From the NCBI GenBank assembly GCA_050014495.1, contig JBEKDF010000058.1, forward strand, positions 1 to 11,824: 11,824 bases of DNA, given 5' to 3'. This DNA is from Candidatus Bathyarchaeia archaeon. GTDB taxonomy: Archaea > Thermoproteota > Bathyarchaeia > TCS64. The translations under genes were made by a program, and so were the position numbers. The number at the start of each line of letters is the position of its first letter. Position 1 is the stretch's first letter. This document shows positions 2,182 to 8,555 of this stretch, one piece after another. The notes below the pieces were generated by a model. That model had not been told where the DNA came from and searched no databases. It was given only the letters and a program-made list of their open reading frames with translations.

Positions 2182-2775
2182 TTGTCGTTCTGGGAGGAGT
2201 GGGATAAACGAAGGAAGCGGGGAACACCCTTCTTCTTCCCCGACCTTGAGAGGATGATAGAAGAGATGGAGAAGGAAATGGCTGACTTCTTCAAAGAATT
2301 AGAAGCCGAGGTACCAGAGGATCTCGCGCAGGAGCATGTCCTCCCCGATGGATCCGTGAGGAAGGAGTATGGCCCATTCGTCTATGGATACTCAGTCAAA
2401 GTTGGACCCGATGGAAAGCCTATCGTCCGCGAGTTCGGGAATATGAAGCCAAACCCAACATTAGGGGAAGATAAGAAACCACTGTCCCTACAGGAGGCAA
2501 GGGAGCCACTGGTTGACGTCATACAAGAGCCAGATCAGGTCAAAATAATTACTGAGCTCCCAGGCGTCGAGAAAGAAGACATCCAACTTTTCGCCACAGA
2601 GAGGTTACTCACTATAGATGTTACAAATCCTGAGCATAGATACCATAAGGAGCTTGAGTTGCCCTTCGACGTGAATGAAGAATCTGCCACAAGCACTTAC
2701 CGAAACGGTGTCCTTGAGACGATTATCAAGAGAAAGCTGGATAGAGGTTCTGGACGAAGTATCGCGGTTCAGTGA
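2182..2775 (+). CDS. hsp20: Archaeal small heat shock protein Hsp20 (alpha-crystallin domain)
   Basis: GPFVYGYSVKVGPDGKPIVREFGN, EPLVDV, ELPGVEKEDI, YRNGVLE and C-terminal IxV. The start is probably TTG at 2182 (GGTG at 2171-2174) rather than ATG at 2146, which sits in the TATA region. Confidence 0.94.
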   Translation: MSFWEEWDKRRKRGTPFFFPDLERMIEEMEKEMADFFKELEAEVPEDLAQEHVLPDGSVRKEYGPFVYGYSVKVGPDGKPIVREFGNMKPNPTLGEDKKPLSLQEAREPLVDVIQEPDQVKIITELPGVEKEDIQLFATERLLTIDVTNPEHRYHKELELPFDVNEESATSTYRNGVLETIIKRKLDRGSGRSIAVQ

Positions 2776-2820
2776 TCAACTAAGCAACTCCATAACATGC
2801 GTGCACATATAAGTAATTAT

Positions 2821-3633
2821 TGTTTTGTGGAGTATCAGTAAAACTTATAGATCAAACAGGGCACATTTCTAACCAATGGACTGGAAAGAGACCGATCAAA
2901 GGCTCATCCGGCGAGGAGAACTAATACTAGAAACACAATCACTGAAAAACCACGGAAAAGAACTCAAAAAGATGAACGAAGGCAGACCAGGACCCAGATA
3001 CAAACTCGCCAACAGCTACGTAGAGCTCCTAGCAGCAGTAAGATACCTCTACCAAATGCCCCACCGCCAACTCGAAGGCTTCACCAGAACACTCCACACA
3101 CTCGTCCCAGACCTACCACAGGCGACTACTCAGGACTCAGGAAACGCATCCTCCGACTCAACACAGACCCCTACGGGAGCCTCAGGGAATCCACCGAACC
3201 CGTCACAATCGCCGTCGACTCCAACGGAGTCAAGGTCCACAAGGCCGGGGGATGGGTGGAGCGGGTGCACGGGAAGAAGAGCCGCTACGTGAAGCTTCAC
3301 TTCGCCGTCCGCATCGACACCCATGAGGTGGTGGCGATGGAGGTCAGCACAGACGACACCCGCGCGCGCATGCGTCGGGCGGTGGAGCTGGTTAAGCGTC
3401 TCGGCTACGATGGGTGGGCTAGGCTCTCTGGTTATGGGCGGCGGTGGGCCGTGGAGACGGCTTATTCGACGTTCAAGCGGGTTTTCGGTGAGGGGTGTAT
3501 GGCGAAGACGCTGGGGAACATCGCGAGGGAGCTGGTTGGTAAGGTGGCGTTGGATAATGTGTTGATTAATGGGTGAGTGGGCTGTGGGTTTGTTGATCGG
3601 TGTTCTAACCGCTACTTGATAGTCCACGAAGCA
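2821..3633 (+). mobile_element. Defective IS5-family insertion sequence (ISH1-like group), 813 bp
   Basis: TIRs TGTTTTGTGGAGTATCA (2821-2837) and TGATAGTCCACGAAGCA (3617-3633) match at 14/17. 8-bp target duplication GTAATTAT at 2813-2820 and 3634-3641. Internal transposase remnant. Confidence 0.92.
2876..3576 (+). pseudogene. IS5-family DDE transposase pseudogene
   Basis: N-terminus MDWKETDQRLIRRGEL...RQLEGF. Frameshift at ~3119-3121, after which the frame reads GDYSGLRKRI...IAVDSNGVK...YVKLHFAV. The second-Asp (DGAYD-type) region is missing at ~3360. C-terminal GYGRRWAVETAYSTFKR is the Y-x2-R-x3-E-x6-K signature. Confidence 0.9.
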
Positions 3634-3640
3634 GTAATTA

Positions 3641-3700
3641 TTATAAATATTGTATATATTTATAAGTCACTGTTATAACAAAAATAGGTAGGTCGGTAGT
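3641..3700 (+). promoter_or_regulatory. Promoter/leader of the short Zn-ribbon-NuoE(N) gene
   Basis: Perfect inverted repeat TTATAAATAT-N5-ATATTTATAA (3641-3665) containing TTTATAA; palindrome TGTTATAACA (3671-3680); AGGTAGGTCGGTAGT (3686-3700) directly before the ATG. Confidence 0.6.
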
Positions 3701-4090
3701 ATGAGGCTAGAATGTGGTCACTGTAGCTACACTTGGGATTACAAAGGTAACCATAACTTTTGGGCTACTTGCCCTCAGTGCCGATACAAAGTTAGGATTA
3801 TCCAAAAACCAATGATAAAATCAGAGGAAAACTGGGAACCCAACGTTGAGGAAACCAATGATAAACGTGTGGTAGATGTAGTTTGGAAACTGCTACAAAA
3901 ATACAGCAACGATAAAAAATCCATCACGCAAATCTTAGCAGAGATCCAGGAAACTTACGGTTGGCTTCCACAGGAGATGATATTGGAGGTCAGCAAGCAG
4001 CTAGAGGTACCCTATGGACAGGTCTATCAGATTGCCATATTTTTGAGGGGGGAAAATAGATCAGAGGCACTGAAATCTAGTGTAAATTAG
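3701..4090 (+). CDS. Zn-ribbon (CxxC...CPxC) fused to the N-terminal helical domain of NuoE/HydC; no [2Fe-2S] domain
   Basis: CGHCSYTWDYKG...ATCPQCRYKV, a linker, then ILAEIQETYGWLPQE...LEVPYGQVYQIAIF. Paralog of 5407..6030, ending where the thioredoxin-like domain would begin. Confidence 0.85.
   Translation: MRLECGHCSYTWDYKGNHNFWATCPQCRYKVRIIQKPMIKSEENWEPNVEETNDKRVVDVVWKLLQKYSNDKKSITQILAEIQETYGWLPQEMILEVSKQLEVPYGQVYQIAIFLRGENRSEALKSSVN
3955..4030 (+). repeat. 76-bp direct repeat, copy 1 (copy 2 at 5667-5742)
   Basis: 74/76 identical; differences are 4003A/5715G and 4007G/5719A. Confidence 0.97.
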
Positions 4091-4287
4091 AAATATATTG
4101 GAGGAACGCGTGAGAAGCACGAGACTGCGGATACCTTTTAGCTTATAATGAGCAGAGTTTTAAGTATGCGCGCGCGCGTGGTAGAAAGTGAAACACTTCT
4201 GAATTGAAAAATTGTTATGGGGTGAGATCCCGCGCCATAATTTTGAGCACGCACTTACATGACCAAAAATTGTTCCTAATGAAATTT

Positions 4288-5310
4288 TTATTCTATAGTT
4301 CTTTTGTAGGCTCTGTCTATAGTTATCTCAGCGATGTCTGATACGTATTGACTTATACGTTTGATGTTCTCTTTGATGAAACTAAAATCGCTCAACGAAG
4401 TGCTTTTGTATCCGTCCACTATGGGCATCTTAATTAAATCATTGCAGAGATTATTGACAATCACTTCACGGTCAATTATCTCATTTGTAGAATCAATATT
4501 AGATGATAAAAAAGATCGGACAGCGAGATCATATGAAGCGAGAGTCATCTCTGCTGCCTTAATTAGGTTCTCCGACACGTTTATAGTTAGTTTTTCCTCA
4601 ACAGGGGTTAATCTCGCTATGATTTTCGCAATTGCGGATATATGGTCCGCTATCCTTTCGATGCTCTGAACAAGGTTCTGATAATCTAGACAGTCGAGTG
4701 GATCTAGTCTCAAGTGATTACCTAAAGAAAGATTCTGCGCACAGCTCCTGATTAGCCTCAGTAAAAAGAACATAAGTTGATCAACGTCATTCTCCAAGGG
4801 TAAGACGGATTCAGCAAGGACTTTATCTCCTACTATAAGAGCATTAATAGTGTCTCTAAACATAGAGTATGTAATGAGGTGAATTCTTTCTACACTGGAT
4901 GAAATTGAGGCCCTATCTTCATCAATTAAAGTCTCGAGTGTTATGCTGTTCGCATCAGATTTGATTATCATCATATAAAGGATATTCGATATTTGTCGAA
5001 TAGCTGCCTGCTGGTTGATGGTGAAGATTTTTTCGGATATGAGATTAATTAAGGTGTGTCCATCCATGTAAGCTCCGATTATTTTTCGCGTAATTGAAGC
5101 ATCTTTTTCATTTGTACTGATCGTTAGGGAAATGCTTCTCACATCATTCGTCATGTTTTTTGTGGGGTAAACGAAGAGTGTTCCATTGGACAAGGGTTGT
5201 AAGGAGAGCCAATCTCCTTGAGAAATATTGTTGCTTCTCAGCCAGTCCTTTGGTAAGGATACTACGAGCGATGACTGACCAAGAGCTACAATTTTACGCT
5301 GCTCCATCAT
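4288..5310 (-). CDS. phoU: Archaeal AbrB/SpoVT-PhoU family regulator
   Basis: N-terminal AbrB-like RKIVALGQSSLVVSLPKDW...ISQGD; middle RKIIGAYMDG; PhoU repeats (LENDVDQL, IERIADH, IKRISQYVSDIAE). Confidence 0.92.
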   Translation of the reverse strand: MMEQRKIVALGQSSLVVSLPKDWLRSNNISQGDWLSLQPLSNGTLFVYPTKNMTNDVRSISLTISTNEKDASITRKIIGAYMDGHTLINLISEKIFTINQQAAIRQISNILYMMIIKSDANSITLETLIDEDRASISSSVERIHLITYSMFRDTINALIVGDKVLAESVLPLENDVDQLMFFLLRLIRSCAQNLSLGNHLRLDPLDCLDYQNLVQSIERIADHISAIAKIIARLTPVEEKLTINVSENLIKAAEMTLASYDLAVRSFLSSNIDSTNEIIDREVIVNNLCNDLIKMPIVDGYKSTSLSDFSFIKENIKRISQYVSDIAEITIDRAYKRTIE

Positions 5311-5406
5311 GGTTGTATATGTACATATATATTCATTATAATGGTATTTCTGAAAAGTATATATTTTAATTTCGTAATGACTTAAAATCAGGAGGTAGGT
5401 AGGTAG
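5311..5406. promoter_or_regulatory. Divergent phoU / hydC-like promoter region with AT-rich palindromes
   Basis: Palindromes TATATGTACATATA (5316-5329) and CATTATAATG (5334-5343); BRE/TATA-like GAAAAGTATATATTT (5352-5366); GGAGGTAGGTAGGTAG before the TTG. Confidence 0.6.
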
Positions 5407-6030
5407 TTGTTACTTGAGTGTCAACACTGTGGATACATGTGGGACTATAGCGGAGAAAACAGGTTCTACGCAACTTGCCCCCAATGTAGATACAAAGTAA
5501 AGTTATCTGAAGAGGTTAGCGCGACCCCCAGATCCATTAATTCGACACCTCCGAGTGGAGGACAGAATAATCTTAAAGGGGTTGGAAAGATCGTAAGGAG
5601 AATCCTTAGCAAGTATGGGTTTGAGAAGAGATCCCTGATTCAAATCCTGCTCAATATTCAACATGATTACGGTTGGCTTCCACAGGAGATGATATTGGAG
5701 GTCAGCAAGCAGCTGGAGATACCCTATGGACAGGTCTATCAGGTAGCGACTTTCTACAAAGCATTCTCGACCTCGCCCAGGGGAAGACACCACATCAGAG
5801 TATGTAATGGTACAAGCTGCAATGTCCGAGGTTCACAGGCTGTAATTGAGGGACTGGAGAGGAGACTCGGGATAGGTGCCCTAGAGACAACTGTTGATGG
5901 AAGATTTAGCCTCGAGACCGTGAACTGCGTGGGATGCTGTGCGATGGGGCCTATGGTAGCCATAGATGGGGAATACTTCGGTAAAATGGATGTTAAGGGC
6001 CTGGATACTGTCCTGGAGAAGTTTAAGTGA
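5407..6030 (+). CDS. nuoE: HydC/NuoE-like [2Fe-2S] subunit with an extra N-terminal Zn ribbon
   Basis: CQHC...CPQC N-terminal ribbon; helical domain (GWLPQE...VYQVATFY); CNGTSC...CVGCC [2Fe-2S] motif. Confidence 0.93.
   Translation: MLLECQHCGYMWDYSGENRFYATCPQCRYKVKLSEEVSATPRSINSTPPSGGQNNLKGVGKIVRRILSKYGFEKRSLIQILLNIQHDYGWLPQEMILEVSKQLEIPYGQVYQVATFYKAFSTSPRGRHHIRVCNGTSCNVRGSQAVIEGLERRLGIGALETTVDGRFSLETVNCVGCCAMGPMVAIDGEYFGKMDVKGLDTVLEKFK
5667..5742 (+). repeat. 76-bp direct repeat, copy 2
   Basis: 74/76 identity to 3955-4030. Confidence 0.97.
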
Positions 6031-6040
6031 GGAATAGTTT

Positions 6041-7936
6041 ATGATGTCACGTGAAATAACGGGGCCGAATATGCTTGAAGAGCTTAGGAAGGAGATCCAA
6101 GAGGAATCTGTTTCTCAAAAGGTGACTATCTCGGTTTGCTCCAGTACGGGGTGCGTGGCTCTTGGGTCGCAGAGCCTCTTGAAGATGCTGAAAGAACAAC
6201 TCTCAAATCAGGGTCTAGAGGAAATTGTCGAGATCAAGGAAACCGGGTGCCTCGGCTTCTGCGAGAAAGGACCCAGGCTCACCGTTTATCCAGGAGGCAT
6301 CAGCTACTTCCAGGTTTCTCCTGAAGATATCGACGAGATTGTTACAAGGTCTTTGGAGCATGGTCAACCTCTCGAAAGGCTTCTCCTAAGAGACCCTGAG
6401 ACTGGCAAAACCGCTGAGCGATTAGAAGACATACCATTCTACAAATACCAGCGTAGGTTGCTGCTGAGCGATAATGAGAGAGTTGATCCGAAAAAAATCG
6501 AGGACTACATTTCGATTGGTGGATACTCTGCCCTGAGCAGGGTTCTATTCCATATGAAGCCAGAGCAGGTGATCCAAGAGGTCAAGAAGTCTGGTCTACG
6601 GGGTCGTGGCGGTAGCGGCTTCCCGACGGGGCGTAAGTGGGAGGCAACCAGGGATGCCCCTGGAGACCCTAAATATGTAATAGTAAACTGCGACGAAGGG
6701 GATCCCGGGTCCTTCATGGATAGATCCCTCATGGAGGGAAACCCCCACAAGGTACTAGAGGGCATGATGATAGGAGCGTACGCTATAGGTGCCTCGAAGG
6801 GGTACATATATATTAGAGAGGAGTATCCCATCGCATTCGCCAATGTGAAAACAGCCATAGCCCAGGCTAAGGAGTATGGTCTGATTGGTAGTAACGTTAT
6901 GGGGTCGGGTTTTAGCTTCGATGTAAAGGTCCACTCAGGTGCAGGAGCCTTCGTTTCTGGGGAGTCAAGCGCACTTGTTGAGGCGATTGAGGGTAGAGTC
7001 GGCGAACCGAGGCCCAAGTACATACACATATCCGAGAGGGGCATCGACGGGAAGCCAACTTGCCTGAATAACGTGAAGACATGGGCGAATGTCCCGATTA
7101 TTATTTTAAACAGCGCCGAGTGGTACAAGAGTGTTGGTACGGAGAGTAGCAGTGGCACCAACATCTTCTCCCTCGTGGGTAATGTGAATAACACCGGCCT
7201 TGTAGAGGTTCCAATGGGAATCACCCTCAGAGACATGGTCTACAAGATAGGTGGAGGCGTGCGAGGTGGTAAGCGGTTTAAAGCCGTGCAAATTGGAGGA
7301 CCCTCTGGCGGATTCATCCCGGAGCAGTTCCTAGATCTCAAGGTAGACTTCGACTCCCTATCAGAGGCAGGTTCAATGATGGGCTCAGGAGGGATGGTGG
7401 TCATGAATGAGGATGCCTGCATGGTGGACGCTGCAAAGTACTTCGTGGACTTCCTACTCGAGGAGTCCTGTGGAAAATGCATACCATGTCGCGAGGGGCT
7501 AAAGGTGCTTTCAGCCACACTCGGCAGAATATGTGAGGGAATGGGAAAACATTCCGACCTCGAGATAATTAGAGACGTGACTGAGGCAATGGAGACAACG
7601 AGTCTCTGCTCACTAGGTAAAACCGCGATCAACCCGGTATTAACTTCAATGAATTACTTCAAAGACGAATGGGAAGCACATATTGAGGAGAAAGTCTGCC
7701 CAGCTAAGCATTGTAGAGCCCTCATCGAGTACTCCATAGACGAGAAAAGTTGCAAGGCTTGTCTCCAATGTACAATGAACTGCTCCACAGCAGCTATTAG
7801 CGGGGAGAAGAGGAAACCACAAAGAATTGACCAGAGTAAATGCATAAAGTGTGGAACATGTTACGACCTCTGCCCAAGCAACGCTGTTGTGAAGATATCT
7901 AGAGGCGCGGCCAAGCAGATAGGATTGGTGGATTAA
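6041..7936 (+). CDS. nuoF: HydB/NuoF-like FMN- and NAD(P)H-binding flavoprotein (long, bifurcating-type architecture)
   Basis: N-terminal thioredoxin-like Fe-S (CSSTGC, GCLGFC); GLRGRGGSGFPTG; NCDEGDPGSFMDR; SLBB GGPSGG; CGKCIPCREG...CSLG; C...H-x5-C-x4-C site; two C-terminal CxxCxxCxxxC motifs. Confidence 0.95.
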   Translation: MMSREITGPNMLEELRKEIQEESVSQKVTISVCSSTGCVALGSQSLLKMLKEQLSNQGLEEIVEIKETGCLGFCEKGPRLTVYPGGISYFQVSPEDIDEIVTRSLEHGQPLERLLLRDPETGKTAERLEDIPFYKYQRRLLLSDNERVDPKKIEDYISIGGYSALSRVLFHMKPEQVIQEVKKSGLRGRGGSGFPTGRKWEATRDAPGDPKYVIVNCDEGDPGSFMDRSLMEGNPHKVLEGMMIGAYAIGASKGYIYIREEYPIAFANVKTAIAQAKEYGLIGSNVMGSGFSFDVKVHSGAGAFVSGESSALVEAIEGRVGEPRPKYIHISERGIDGKPTCLNNVKTWANVPIIILNSAEWYKSVGTESSSGTNIFSLVGNVNNTGLVEVPMGITLRDMVYKIGGGVRGGKRFKAVQIGGPSGGFIPEQFLDLKVDFDSLSEAGSMMGSGGMVVMNEDACMVDAAKYFVDFLLEESCGKCIPCREGLKVLSATLGRICEGMGKHSDLEIIRDVTEAMETTSLCSLGKTAINPVLTSMNYFKDEWEAHIEEKVCPAKHCRALIEYSIDEKSCKACLQCTMNCSTAAISGEKRKPQRIDQSKCIKCGTCYDLCPSNAVVKISRGAAKQIGLVD

Positions 7937-7937
7937 A

Positions 7938-8555
7938 TTGAAGACGATAGAGTTTGAGATAGACGAGAAGAAAGTGAGAGCCAGGGAAGGCATGACAATA
8001 CTTGAGGCTGCAAAGCAATCAGGTGTCAATATTCCTACACTCTGCTACCATGAGAATCTGGATCACCTCGGTTGCTGCAGAATCTGCTCGGTGTATATTG
8101 AGAAAGGGAAAAGGGGGAGTATAGTCACAGCCTGTAGCTACCCCGTTGAAGAAGGACTTAAGGTGACGACTCGTTCACAAAAGATCGATAGGTTAAGGAA
8201 GACAATAATCGAACTAGCAATCGTTGGTTCCGGCCCTAATATAAAGGCTGACCTCTATAGACTTTCTAAGGAATATAATGCAGATCTTAATCGTTTCAGC
8301 TCAATCGGGGAAGAGACCAAATATAACTGCATACTCTGTGGACTATGCACCATAAAATGCATCGAGGCTACAGGTGGAGCAATTGGCTTTGTAGGCCGGG
8401 GGGTTGACAAGAAGATAGTCTCGTTCCCCGAGACGTCGCAGACATGTATAACCTGTAACTACTGTAACAATGTGTGCCCGACTGGGAGAATATCGTTAAA
8501 GGGGGCCGACCCGCCCTTTCCAACAGTCAACGACTTTCTCTCAGGAAGAAGCTAG
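7938..8555 (+). CDS. Short HydA/NuoG/HoxU-like Fe-S subunit ([2Fe-2S] + 2x[4Fe-4S]) without a catalytic domain
   Basis: IPTLC...GCCRIC...TAC; CILCGLCTIKC; CITCNYCNNVCP. Only 205 aa, with no H-cluster or molybdopterin domain. Confidence 0.92.
   Translation: MKTIEFEIDEKKVRAREGMTILEAAKQSGVNIPTLCYHENLDHLGCCRICSVYIEKGKRGSIVTACSYPVEEGLKVTTRSQKIDRLRKTIIELAIVGSGPNIKADLYRLSKEYNADLNRFSSIGEETKYNCILCGLCTIKCIEATGGAIGFVGRGVDKKIVSFPETSQTCITCNYCNNVCPTGRISLKGADPPFPTVNDFLSGRS

Follow-up and report, generated by a model that had tools for sequence, protein, structure and literature searches.

A 33-residue zinc ribbon that opens two genes of a Bathyarchaeia archaeon is probably a DNA-binding autorepressor that reads GGTA/AGTA repeats at its own gene, and its fusion to BfuC, a subunit of an electron-bifurcating complex, would let this protein repress the bfuCBA operon. 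The window analysed here is a stretch of 11,824 nucleotides, the whole of an 11.8-kb contig (JBEKDF010000058.1) that is part of a 3.1-Mb genome. It holds a complete ribbon-BfuC gene (the long gene) and a short paralog without the [2Fe-2S] domain. A previous sequence-only reading of the window had proposed that the ribbon may couple the complex to DNA or to a partner; the repeat that accompanies the ribbon lends strong indirect support to coupling to DNA, and the binding itself we infer. The coordinates given there for the three open reading frames, 3701-4090 (+), 5407-6030 (+) and 4288-5310 (-), were confirmed, as was the common ribbon motif at the beginning of both plus-strand genes, with 64% identity over 33 residues. 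The features that carry the argument are the following, L001 being the only other genome with both gene copies:

3701..4090, + strand: short paralog, 129 residues; zinc ribbon (3701-3799), linker and BfuC/NuoE helical domain, without the [2Fe-2S] domain (open reading frame, Pfam, orthologs, selection, tree)
5407..6030, + strand: long gene, TTG start, 207 residues; zinc ribbon (5407-5505), flexible linker and complete BfuC/HydC/NuoE subunit
3659..3666, + strand: putative TATA box of the short gene, TTTATAAG, read by eye and of presumed function; same word at near-equal distance in L001
3687..3699, unstranded: putative operator GGTAGGTCGGTAG before the short gene; one of two genome matches, identical in L001 despite saturated synonymous sites
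5352..5365, + strand: putative B recognition element (BRE) and TATA box of the bfuCBA operon, of presumed function; TATATA at -49 after a purine run
5394..5406, unstranded: GGTAGGTAGGTAG, a putative operator immediately upstream of the long gene that overlaps its ribosome-binding region; found once in the genome

The motif GGTAGGT[A/C]GGTAG has two matches in the 3.1 Mb of the genome, at window positions 3687 and 5394, each directly before a ribbon gene, and a GGTA-type tandem repeat was found beside the start codon, at the end of all 19 upstream regions listed. RGTA units were counted strand by strand over the 40 nt upstream of the start codon, in 51 loci left after dereplication of 65 that had a scored ribbon and such a codon; loci found via the motif, matches below 35 bits and seven matches without a nearby start codon were left out, and locus L069 was assigned to the BfuC group by hand. 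At least two units on the same strand were present in 24/25 ribbon-BfuC loci and 18/26 other ribbon genes, compared with 153 of 2,697 host-genome frames and 47 of the 648 that have a TATA-like word, and at least three units were reached by 18/25, 14/26 and 12/2,697, respectively. The excess at this higher threshold was clear in dinucleotide shuffles (n = 300; observed 15, maximum 11), which used the grouping before L069 was reassigned. GGT[AG]GGT did not occur in the 200 nt before the NuoE domain of any of 29 ribbon-less NuoE loci (nine from Bathyarchaeia), four of these stretches lying inside a longer frame. In a k-mer count without motif bias, GTAG/CTAC and TAGT/ACTA ranked first in the non-BfuC group, a set that still held motif-selected loci. 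All 117 stretches from a motif-first metagenome scan, nine of them with the ribbon, were excluded from the enrichment as circular, and only an NrdD fusion (L193) is cited from them. In an out-of-sample set of four plasmid records and two near-identical His2-type viruses, four of the five independent records reached two units: repeats were clear in a Micrarchaeota plasmid and in Picrophilus pPO1, and Haloferax pHF2 and His2 had two units each, the His2 case being mid-operon and weak.

The placement of the repeats relative to predicted promoters helps to distinguish a DNA site from an RNA site. On the sense strand, the repeat stands beside the start codon in 21/24 BfuC loci; on the opposite strand only, it was found in 7/26 non-BfuC loci and one Hadarchaea BfuC locus. 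An archaeal BRE-TATA element at -29 to -31 should give a leaderless message, so that repeats between such an element and the ATG would not be part of the message. In loci of this type the repeats occupy the stretch from -21 to -4, with reversed orientation in seven (L075, L238, L245, L250, L257, L263 and the plasmid L325) and forward in three (L240, L244, L268). In genes with the TATA box further upstream, between -39 and -49, the long gene among them, the repeat coincides with or closely follows the expected start site, almost always in forward orientation, and may double as a ribosome-binding site. Both placements are typical of archaeal repressor sites, and the presence of repeats in either orientation between the TATA box and the start codon of leaderless genes points to a putative DNA operator. 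A scripted scan detected no purine-rich BRE at the TATA box of the short gene.

Alternatively, the ribbon could bind the repeat in single-stranded form, as RNA (or as melted DNA), and so repress its own translation, in the manner of RanBP2-type zinc fingers, which recognise GGU. The sense-strand repeats next to the start codon in most BfuC loci fit this possibility, as does the resemblance of the predicted fold to RanBP2/NZF fingers, including RBM5 (Z 2.8) and RNA-bound FUS (Z 2.1). However, these fold scores are within noise, the repeats are reversed in seven of the 26 other loci, those between a TATA box and a leaderless ATG would not be transcribed, and in Picrophilus pPO1 repeats stand in opposite orientations around an AT-rich word. 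We regard RNA binding as unlikely.

The structure model of the ribbon consists of four short strands without a helix, with four cysteines spaced C-x2-C-x15-C-x2-C and a tryptophan after the second one, and does not have a ribbon-helix-helix fold. The nearest predicted folds were IBR, NZF, LysW, ZitP and RanBP2 (Z at most 3.7, E > 0.1); fold searches returned no match with E < 0.001 or Z of at least 5, and neither a new fold nor a function follows from them. The best hit of the ribbon profile in a sequence search of solved structures had an E of 0.02. RanBP2/NZF and IBR fingers align with a root-mean-square deviation of about 1-2 Å over 26-35 residues, at scores in the range of noise, but differ from the ribbon in cysteine spacing and sequence motif (the RanBP2 zinc finger, fold Z 2.1-2.8, follows W-x-C-x2-C-x3-N-x6-C-x2-C). 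Archaeal zinc ribbons can bind DNA, as described for Cren7/Cren7Znr in the accessible part of PMC5906684, and Cren7 is likewise a small ribbon with aromatic and basic residues on its strands. Unlike the role proposed here, Cren7 is a chromatin protein; it is not among the sequence and fold matches listed, the latter obtained with a 35-residue model and weak scores. PMC5906684 provides a precedent for DNA-binding archaeal ribbons, not evidence of membership.

Several considerations weigh against an autorepressor that reads the repeat on DNA. Binding and repression rest on genomic association, namely co-occurrence, position, orientation and conservation, and the motif was defined after the BfuC loci had been seen. 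The excess of loci with at least two units over the 300 dinucleotide shuffles is modest (observed 19, mean 13.7, maximum 18); the repeat is absent from 8/26 other ribbon loci, from the Hadarchaea locus L014 and from the Natrinema record of the out-of-sample set, and the seven ribbon matches without a start codon nearby dropped out of the count. Related loci are not independent: TnpB elements make up about 10 of the 26 "other" loci. Among TnpB loci, five with the ribbon scored 2-4 units and eight without it 0-2, a comparison not used as support since two of the eight are damaged ribbon-family members and the search window was wide. TATA boxes and start sites are predictions, and leadered genes, including the long gene, have the sense-strand repeat over the ribosome-binding region, which fits RNA binding too. 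Finally, the nearest folds of the ribbon are generic and mostly protein-binding, with scores within noise.

The repeat could also be a Shine-Dalgarno variant, given the similarity of GGTAGG to GGAGG, or a real cis-element whose reader is another factor: the basal machinery, a chromatin protein or the AbrB-PhoU regulator, whose gene lies between the two ribbon genes. The regulator gene is as follows:

4288..5310, - strand: AbrB-PhoU regulator gene, 340 residues, divergent from the long gene; its placement between ribbon genes is not conserved

Its product has MazE/AbrB and PhoU domains (Pfam), and a gene of this type is the upstream neighbour here and in 4/18 other ribbon-BfuC loci. Nevertheless, the repeat occurs with or without an adjacent PhoU gene, the adjacent PhoU genes come from at least two paralog lineages, the 13-mer is present just twice in the genome, and reversed copies cannot be ribosome-binding sites. 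This alternative is very unlikely. The earlier proposal of a three-gene regulatory module bracketing the AbrB-PhoU gene is not supported: the two ribbon genes of L001 are adjacent, without PhoU between them, and within the genus the three orthologs most similar to this PhoU (57-72%) sit in unrelated contexts, one of them in a genome with ribbon-BfuC elsewhere. The host genome encodes four AbrB-PhoU paralogs. Upstream position in four of 18 loci, from at least two lineages, suggests that AbrB-PhoU-type regulators have been repeatedly recruited beside ribbon-BfuC rather than forming a fixed module, the gene being in all likelihood a separate, exchangeable neighbour. A perfect 14-bp palindrome, TATATGTACATATA, at window 5316-5329, directly before the PhoU start in the divergent promoter region, is a candidate site for the AbrB-PhoU protein. 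Within the PhoU gene, at window 4423, a single contig of run X5 has a one-base deletion, either a strain variant or an assembly error.

Downstream of the long gene, two further genes complete the operon:

6041..7936, + strand: BfuB/HydB flavoprotein, 631 residues, with all five cluster motifs (Pfam, residue conservation)
7938..8555, + strand: minimal BfuA, 205 residues, with one [2Fe-2S] and ferredoxin-type [4Fe-4S] motifs, without a catalytic domain (Pfam)

As judged from its sequence, and by the definition in the available part of Schut et al. (2022; PMC9304861), the operon at 5407-8555 is a partner-less BfuCBA (HydABC-type) core. In the long protein, PF01257 extends over residues 64-207 (E = 5e-50); the short protein matches profile positions 3-54 of 145 only. 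The [2Fe-2S] cysteines C133, C138, C174 and C178 are conserved and confined to the long protein, which thereby has the NuoE-type [2Fe-2S] cluster C1 of a BfuC; the short paralog lacks the C1 site and by the same measure is not a BfuC. BfuB combines an FMN domain with five cluster sites, identified by Pfam domains and by ligands conserved across 15 sequences (C33/C38/C70/C74, C477/C480/C483/C523, C460/H547/C553/C558 and eight C-terminal cysteines). In the frame at 7938-8555, Fer2_4 and Fer4_7 score above cut-off, providing the [2Fe-2S] and [4Fe-4S] ferredoxin domains, at least one of each, that characterise BfuA. No catalytic subunit for this core was found among the open reading frames of the contig. 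In the AlphaFold model of the long protein, the ribbon has a predicted local distance difference test score of 75-79, linker residues 36-54 are disordered and the body is BfuC-like, its best fold matches being 9mqx_C and 7p5h_C (41% identity, E about 6e-14). Thus, the fold of the long protein followed by BfuB and a minimal BfuA, with all cluster motifs, agrees with the Bfu enzymes described in the available text of PMC9304861, whereas the N-terminal zinc ribbon with its linker, the [2Fe-2S]-less paralog and the lack of a catalytic partner on the contig set the locus apart; the word "zinc" is absent from the main text of that paper. The ribbon-bfuCBA operon is often found beside CODH/ACS (carbon monoxide dehydrogenase/acetyl-CoA synthase) genes (L082, L084, L091, L095 and L002-L007), and membrane hydrogenase-like genes lie near it in L085 and L094, both observations being judged from translations.

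The ribbon-BfuC fusion is a lineage trait, not a one-off. Named relatives of the long protein are from Bathyarchaeia, those from Hadarchaea being more distant, and an intact four-cysteine ribbon is present in 111 of the best 120 of 706 homologs. A ribbon profile search found a fusion-sized frame with the ribbon in 22 of the 401 genomes of the class, in five families, and the 18 of these inspected at the locus all had BfuC genes.

The short gene is a member of a conserved, monophyletic family that evolves under purifying selection. Its layout recurs in the L001 copy and in seven other proteins, 123-139 residues long, the stop codon having been seen in DNA for L001 and the other seven being known as proteins only; the nine members form one clade nested within the long proteins (support 100/99, from a bootstrap that had not fully settled). 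In the comparison of this genome with L001, pS (synonymous differences per site) is saturated (0.75) and pN (nonsynonymous) is 0.23 overall and 0.10 in the ribbon. The resulting pN/pS is 0.31 for the gene, 0.12 for the ribbon and 0.41 for the first half of the helical domain, the ribbon being the best-conserved part. The possibility that the short gene is a decaying duplicate without function draws on its rarity (2/18 genomes of the genus), on a pN above that of the long gene (0.23 vs 0.14) and on an IS5-like element that ends shortly upstream. Yet nine intact members of similar length in one clade, a pN/pS of 0.31 at saturated pS and the conservation of the promoter word and repeat make decay highly improbable. 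Among 24 sequencing runs, the listing named no RNA run that carries the sequence, which speaks neither for nor against expression. An origin as a recent frameshift relic, suggested by the alignment of the two copies, was ruled out by the orthologs. The IS5-like transposase lies in two frames (2876-3292 and 3256-3576) of an element at window 2774-3598 with imperfect terminal inverted repeats, whose end is about 60 nt upstream of the putative promoter of the short gene. The element has related copies, as contigs of two other runs carry it with an additional A near 3119 and within different flanks.

Two details of the sequence-only reading of the short gene require correction. Retention of the four ribbon cysteines despite DNA divergence holds for the ribbon (62% nucleotide identity) and does not extend to the helical domain, which includes a near-identical tract:

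3955..4030, + strand: 76-nt tract with 97% identity to 5667-5742, probably a product of recent gene conversion (pS 0.07 between the copies)

Moreover, the protein does not stop cleanly at the domain end: about 13 non-homologous residues follow the last helix, and IFL replaces the TFY of the long family. Because the two copies of the tract are near-identical here and not in L001 (pS 0.72), and contigs of other runs carry the tract in both genes, recent gene conversion is the likely origin. Misassembly was ruled out by contigs of X5 and X9, two runs without a flag as sources, that carry the tract within its flanks, and a joint of 5666 to 3955 in run X7 is best taken as an assembly jump over a 48-nt exact repeat.

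A different explanation for the short paralog, along the lines of the sequence-only reading, is that it is a decoy that docks on BfuB without the [2Fe-2S] relay, the ribbon being a protein-interaction or metal module and the repeat incidental. The short family retains motifs of the helical domain (GW-P-EM, Q83, Q100), the gene-conversion tract falls within this domain, and the best fold matches of the ribbon are protein-binding ribbons. Furthermore, cluster C1 of BfuC is central to electron bifurcation according to the available part of PMC9304861, so that a C1-less subunit would be inhibitory. However, the conserved TFY has turned into TFL or IFL and is lost in two short members, and a decoy leaves unexplained both why the ribbon and the repeat are the best-kept parts of the short gene and why the repeat travels with the ribbon across unrelated passengers. 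We consider this explanation unlikely, with the proviso that docking on BfuB and DNA binding are not mutually exclusive.

Under the autorepressor reading, ribbons would bind one per 3-4-bp unit across the transcription start region and block initiation. The cassette may derive from a mobile element and have been domesticated onto BfuC. It would have been retained because it ties expression to assembly: free BfuC would repress its own operon, and association with BfuB would hold BfuC away from the operator. The short paralog may have arisen once, by duplication followed by loss of the [2Fe-2S] domain, as a dedicated repressor; since it keeps the ribbon, the promoter word and the repeat, it would repress both promoters without a cluster. 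Its helical domain may allow titration by BfuB, the least certain step of the proposal.

Beyond BfuC, the ribbon belongs to a large and mostly stand-alone family. A search with its profile gave 1,670 matching clusters (50% identity), 104 of them at E 1e-10. For 149 of the top 150, lengths have a median of 62 residues and do not exceed 80 in 115; tandem ribbons and CBS and HNH fusions are present. The ribbon core is net positive in 134/148. The single ribbon has no counterpart among the named families of Pfam, NCBIfam and PHROGs: the window ribbons and single-ribbon relatives fall below cut-off in Pfam and NCBIfam, generic models such as DUF5817 or Zn_ribbon_4 are passed by tandem-ribbon proteins only, through summed scores, and PHROGs gave two weak matches among 16 members. 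Among the matches listed from a protein atlas, 29/30 are unnamed clusters of 40-47 residues and one is a PhnA-ribbon cluster. Inspection of loci showed that many copies come first in a transcription unit of a TnpB transposon, an archaeal virus or a plasmid: in Thermoproteota genomes, a TATA box precedes a stand-alone ribbon gene that is coupled to tnpB (15 matches in one genome), and the ribbon gene of viral contigs is often the first after a TATA box. Ribbon genes also occur directly before a Cas1 gene. Fusions to BfuC are found in Bathyarchaeia and Hadarchaea, and elsewhere to an N6/N4 DNA methylase, NrdD and a CBS protein. No description of the ribbon, its repeat or the ribbon-NuoE fusion was found in the literature searched, mostly open-access main texts.

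These observations raise the broader and more tentative possibility, to which we give somewhat less than even weight, of a pan-archaeal class of minimal (35-45 residues) zinc-ribbon repressors with a 3-4-bp tandem-repeat operator. This class would control TnpB transposons, viruses and plasmids and would have been domesticated several times by enzyme fusion, BfuC acting as an assembly-sensing repressor tuned by a BfuB-titrated, cluster-less paralog. The Bfu core, small autorepressors of mobile elements and self-repressing enzymes are already known. In self-repressing trigger enzymes of the PutA type, a DNA-binding domain is fused to a redox enzyme and the state of the protein controls its own operon; by contrast, the domain here would be a zinc ribbon, probably derived from a mobile element and attached to a structural Fe-S subunit, and the switch would be complex assembly. 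Arc, a ribbon-helix-helix protein, represses promoters of bacterial IS605 elements, as reported in the accessible part of 10.64898/2026.09.24.754181. Like Arc, stand-alone ribbon relatives, although not the two window genes, are tiny accessory genes inside TnpB elements with a conserved site over their own promoter, and relatives also occur beside cellular genes. Unlike Arc as there described, the ribbon family has a C4 zinc ribbon, archaeal TATA promoters, a short tandem repeat and enzyme fusions, and repression is shown for Arc and inferred here. The ribbon is a possible archaeal counterpart of the Arc repressor of IS605/TnpB elements, and a large unnamed archaeal mini-protein family gains a testable function and a predicted binding site. 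Ribbon mini-proteins are often missed by gene callers (the frame is unannotated in 2/4 plasmid records), and relatives in cultivable hosts (Picrophilus and Haloferax plasmids, His2 virus) offer an easy test. The proposal also suggests how an electron-bifurcating complex of an abundant uncultured lineage could regulate itself, for which nothing was found in the literature searched.

Further observations concern individual members of the family. An NrdD (class III ribonucleotide reductase) with an N-terminal ribbon (L193:1-1224, -) has GGTAGGTAGGTAG in front, and a fusion of N6/N4 DNA methylase and ribbon (L116:1429-2439, +) is preceded by reversed repeats after an AT-rich word and followed by a gene that may encode a restriction partner. 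TnpB elements led by a 41-residue ribbon gene, with a GC-rich end motif and a TATA box in front, were seen in G578 (15 matches), G728, G688, G498, G583, G489 and G428. A solo Cas1-like gene lies in or near elements with ribbon genes in L114 (3431-4600), L115, L116 and L102, confirmed by Pfam for L114 only. In the viral contigs L238, L246, L250 and L257, a conserved protein of 190-200 residues follows directly after the ribbon gene, and in L244 one gene later; it contains the motif G-x-x-PLL-[ML], and neither of the two members tested has a Pfam match. At the left end of the window, a 136-residue frame with a weak Thy1 match (216-626, -) stands directly before a ThyX-like frame (1-219, -) that is cut by the contig end.

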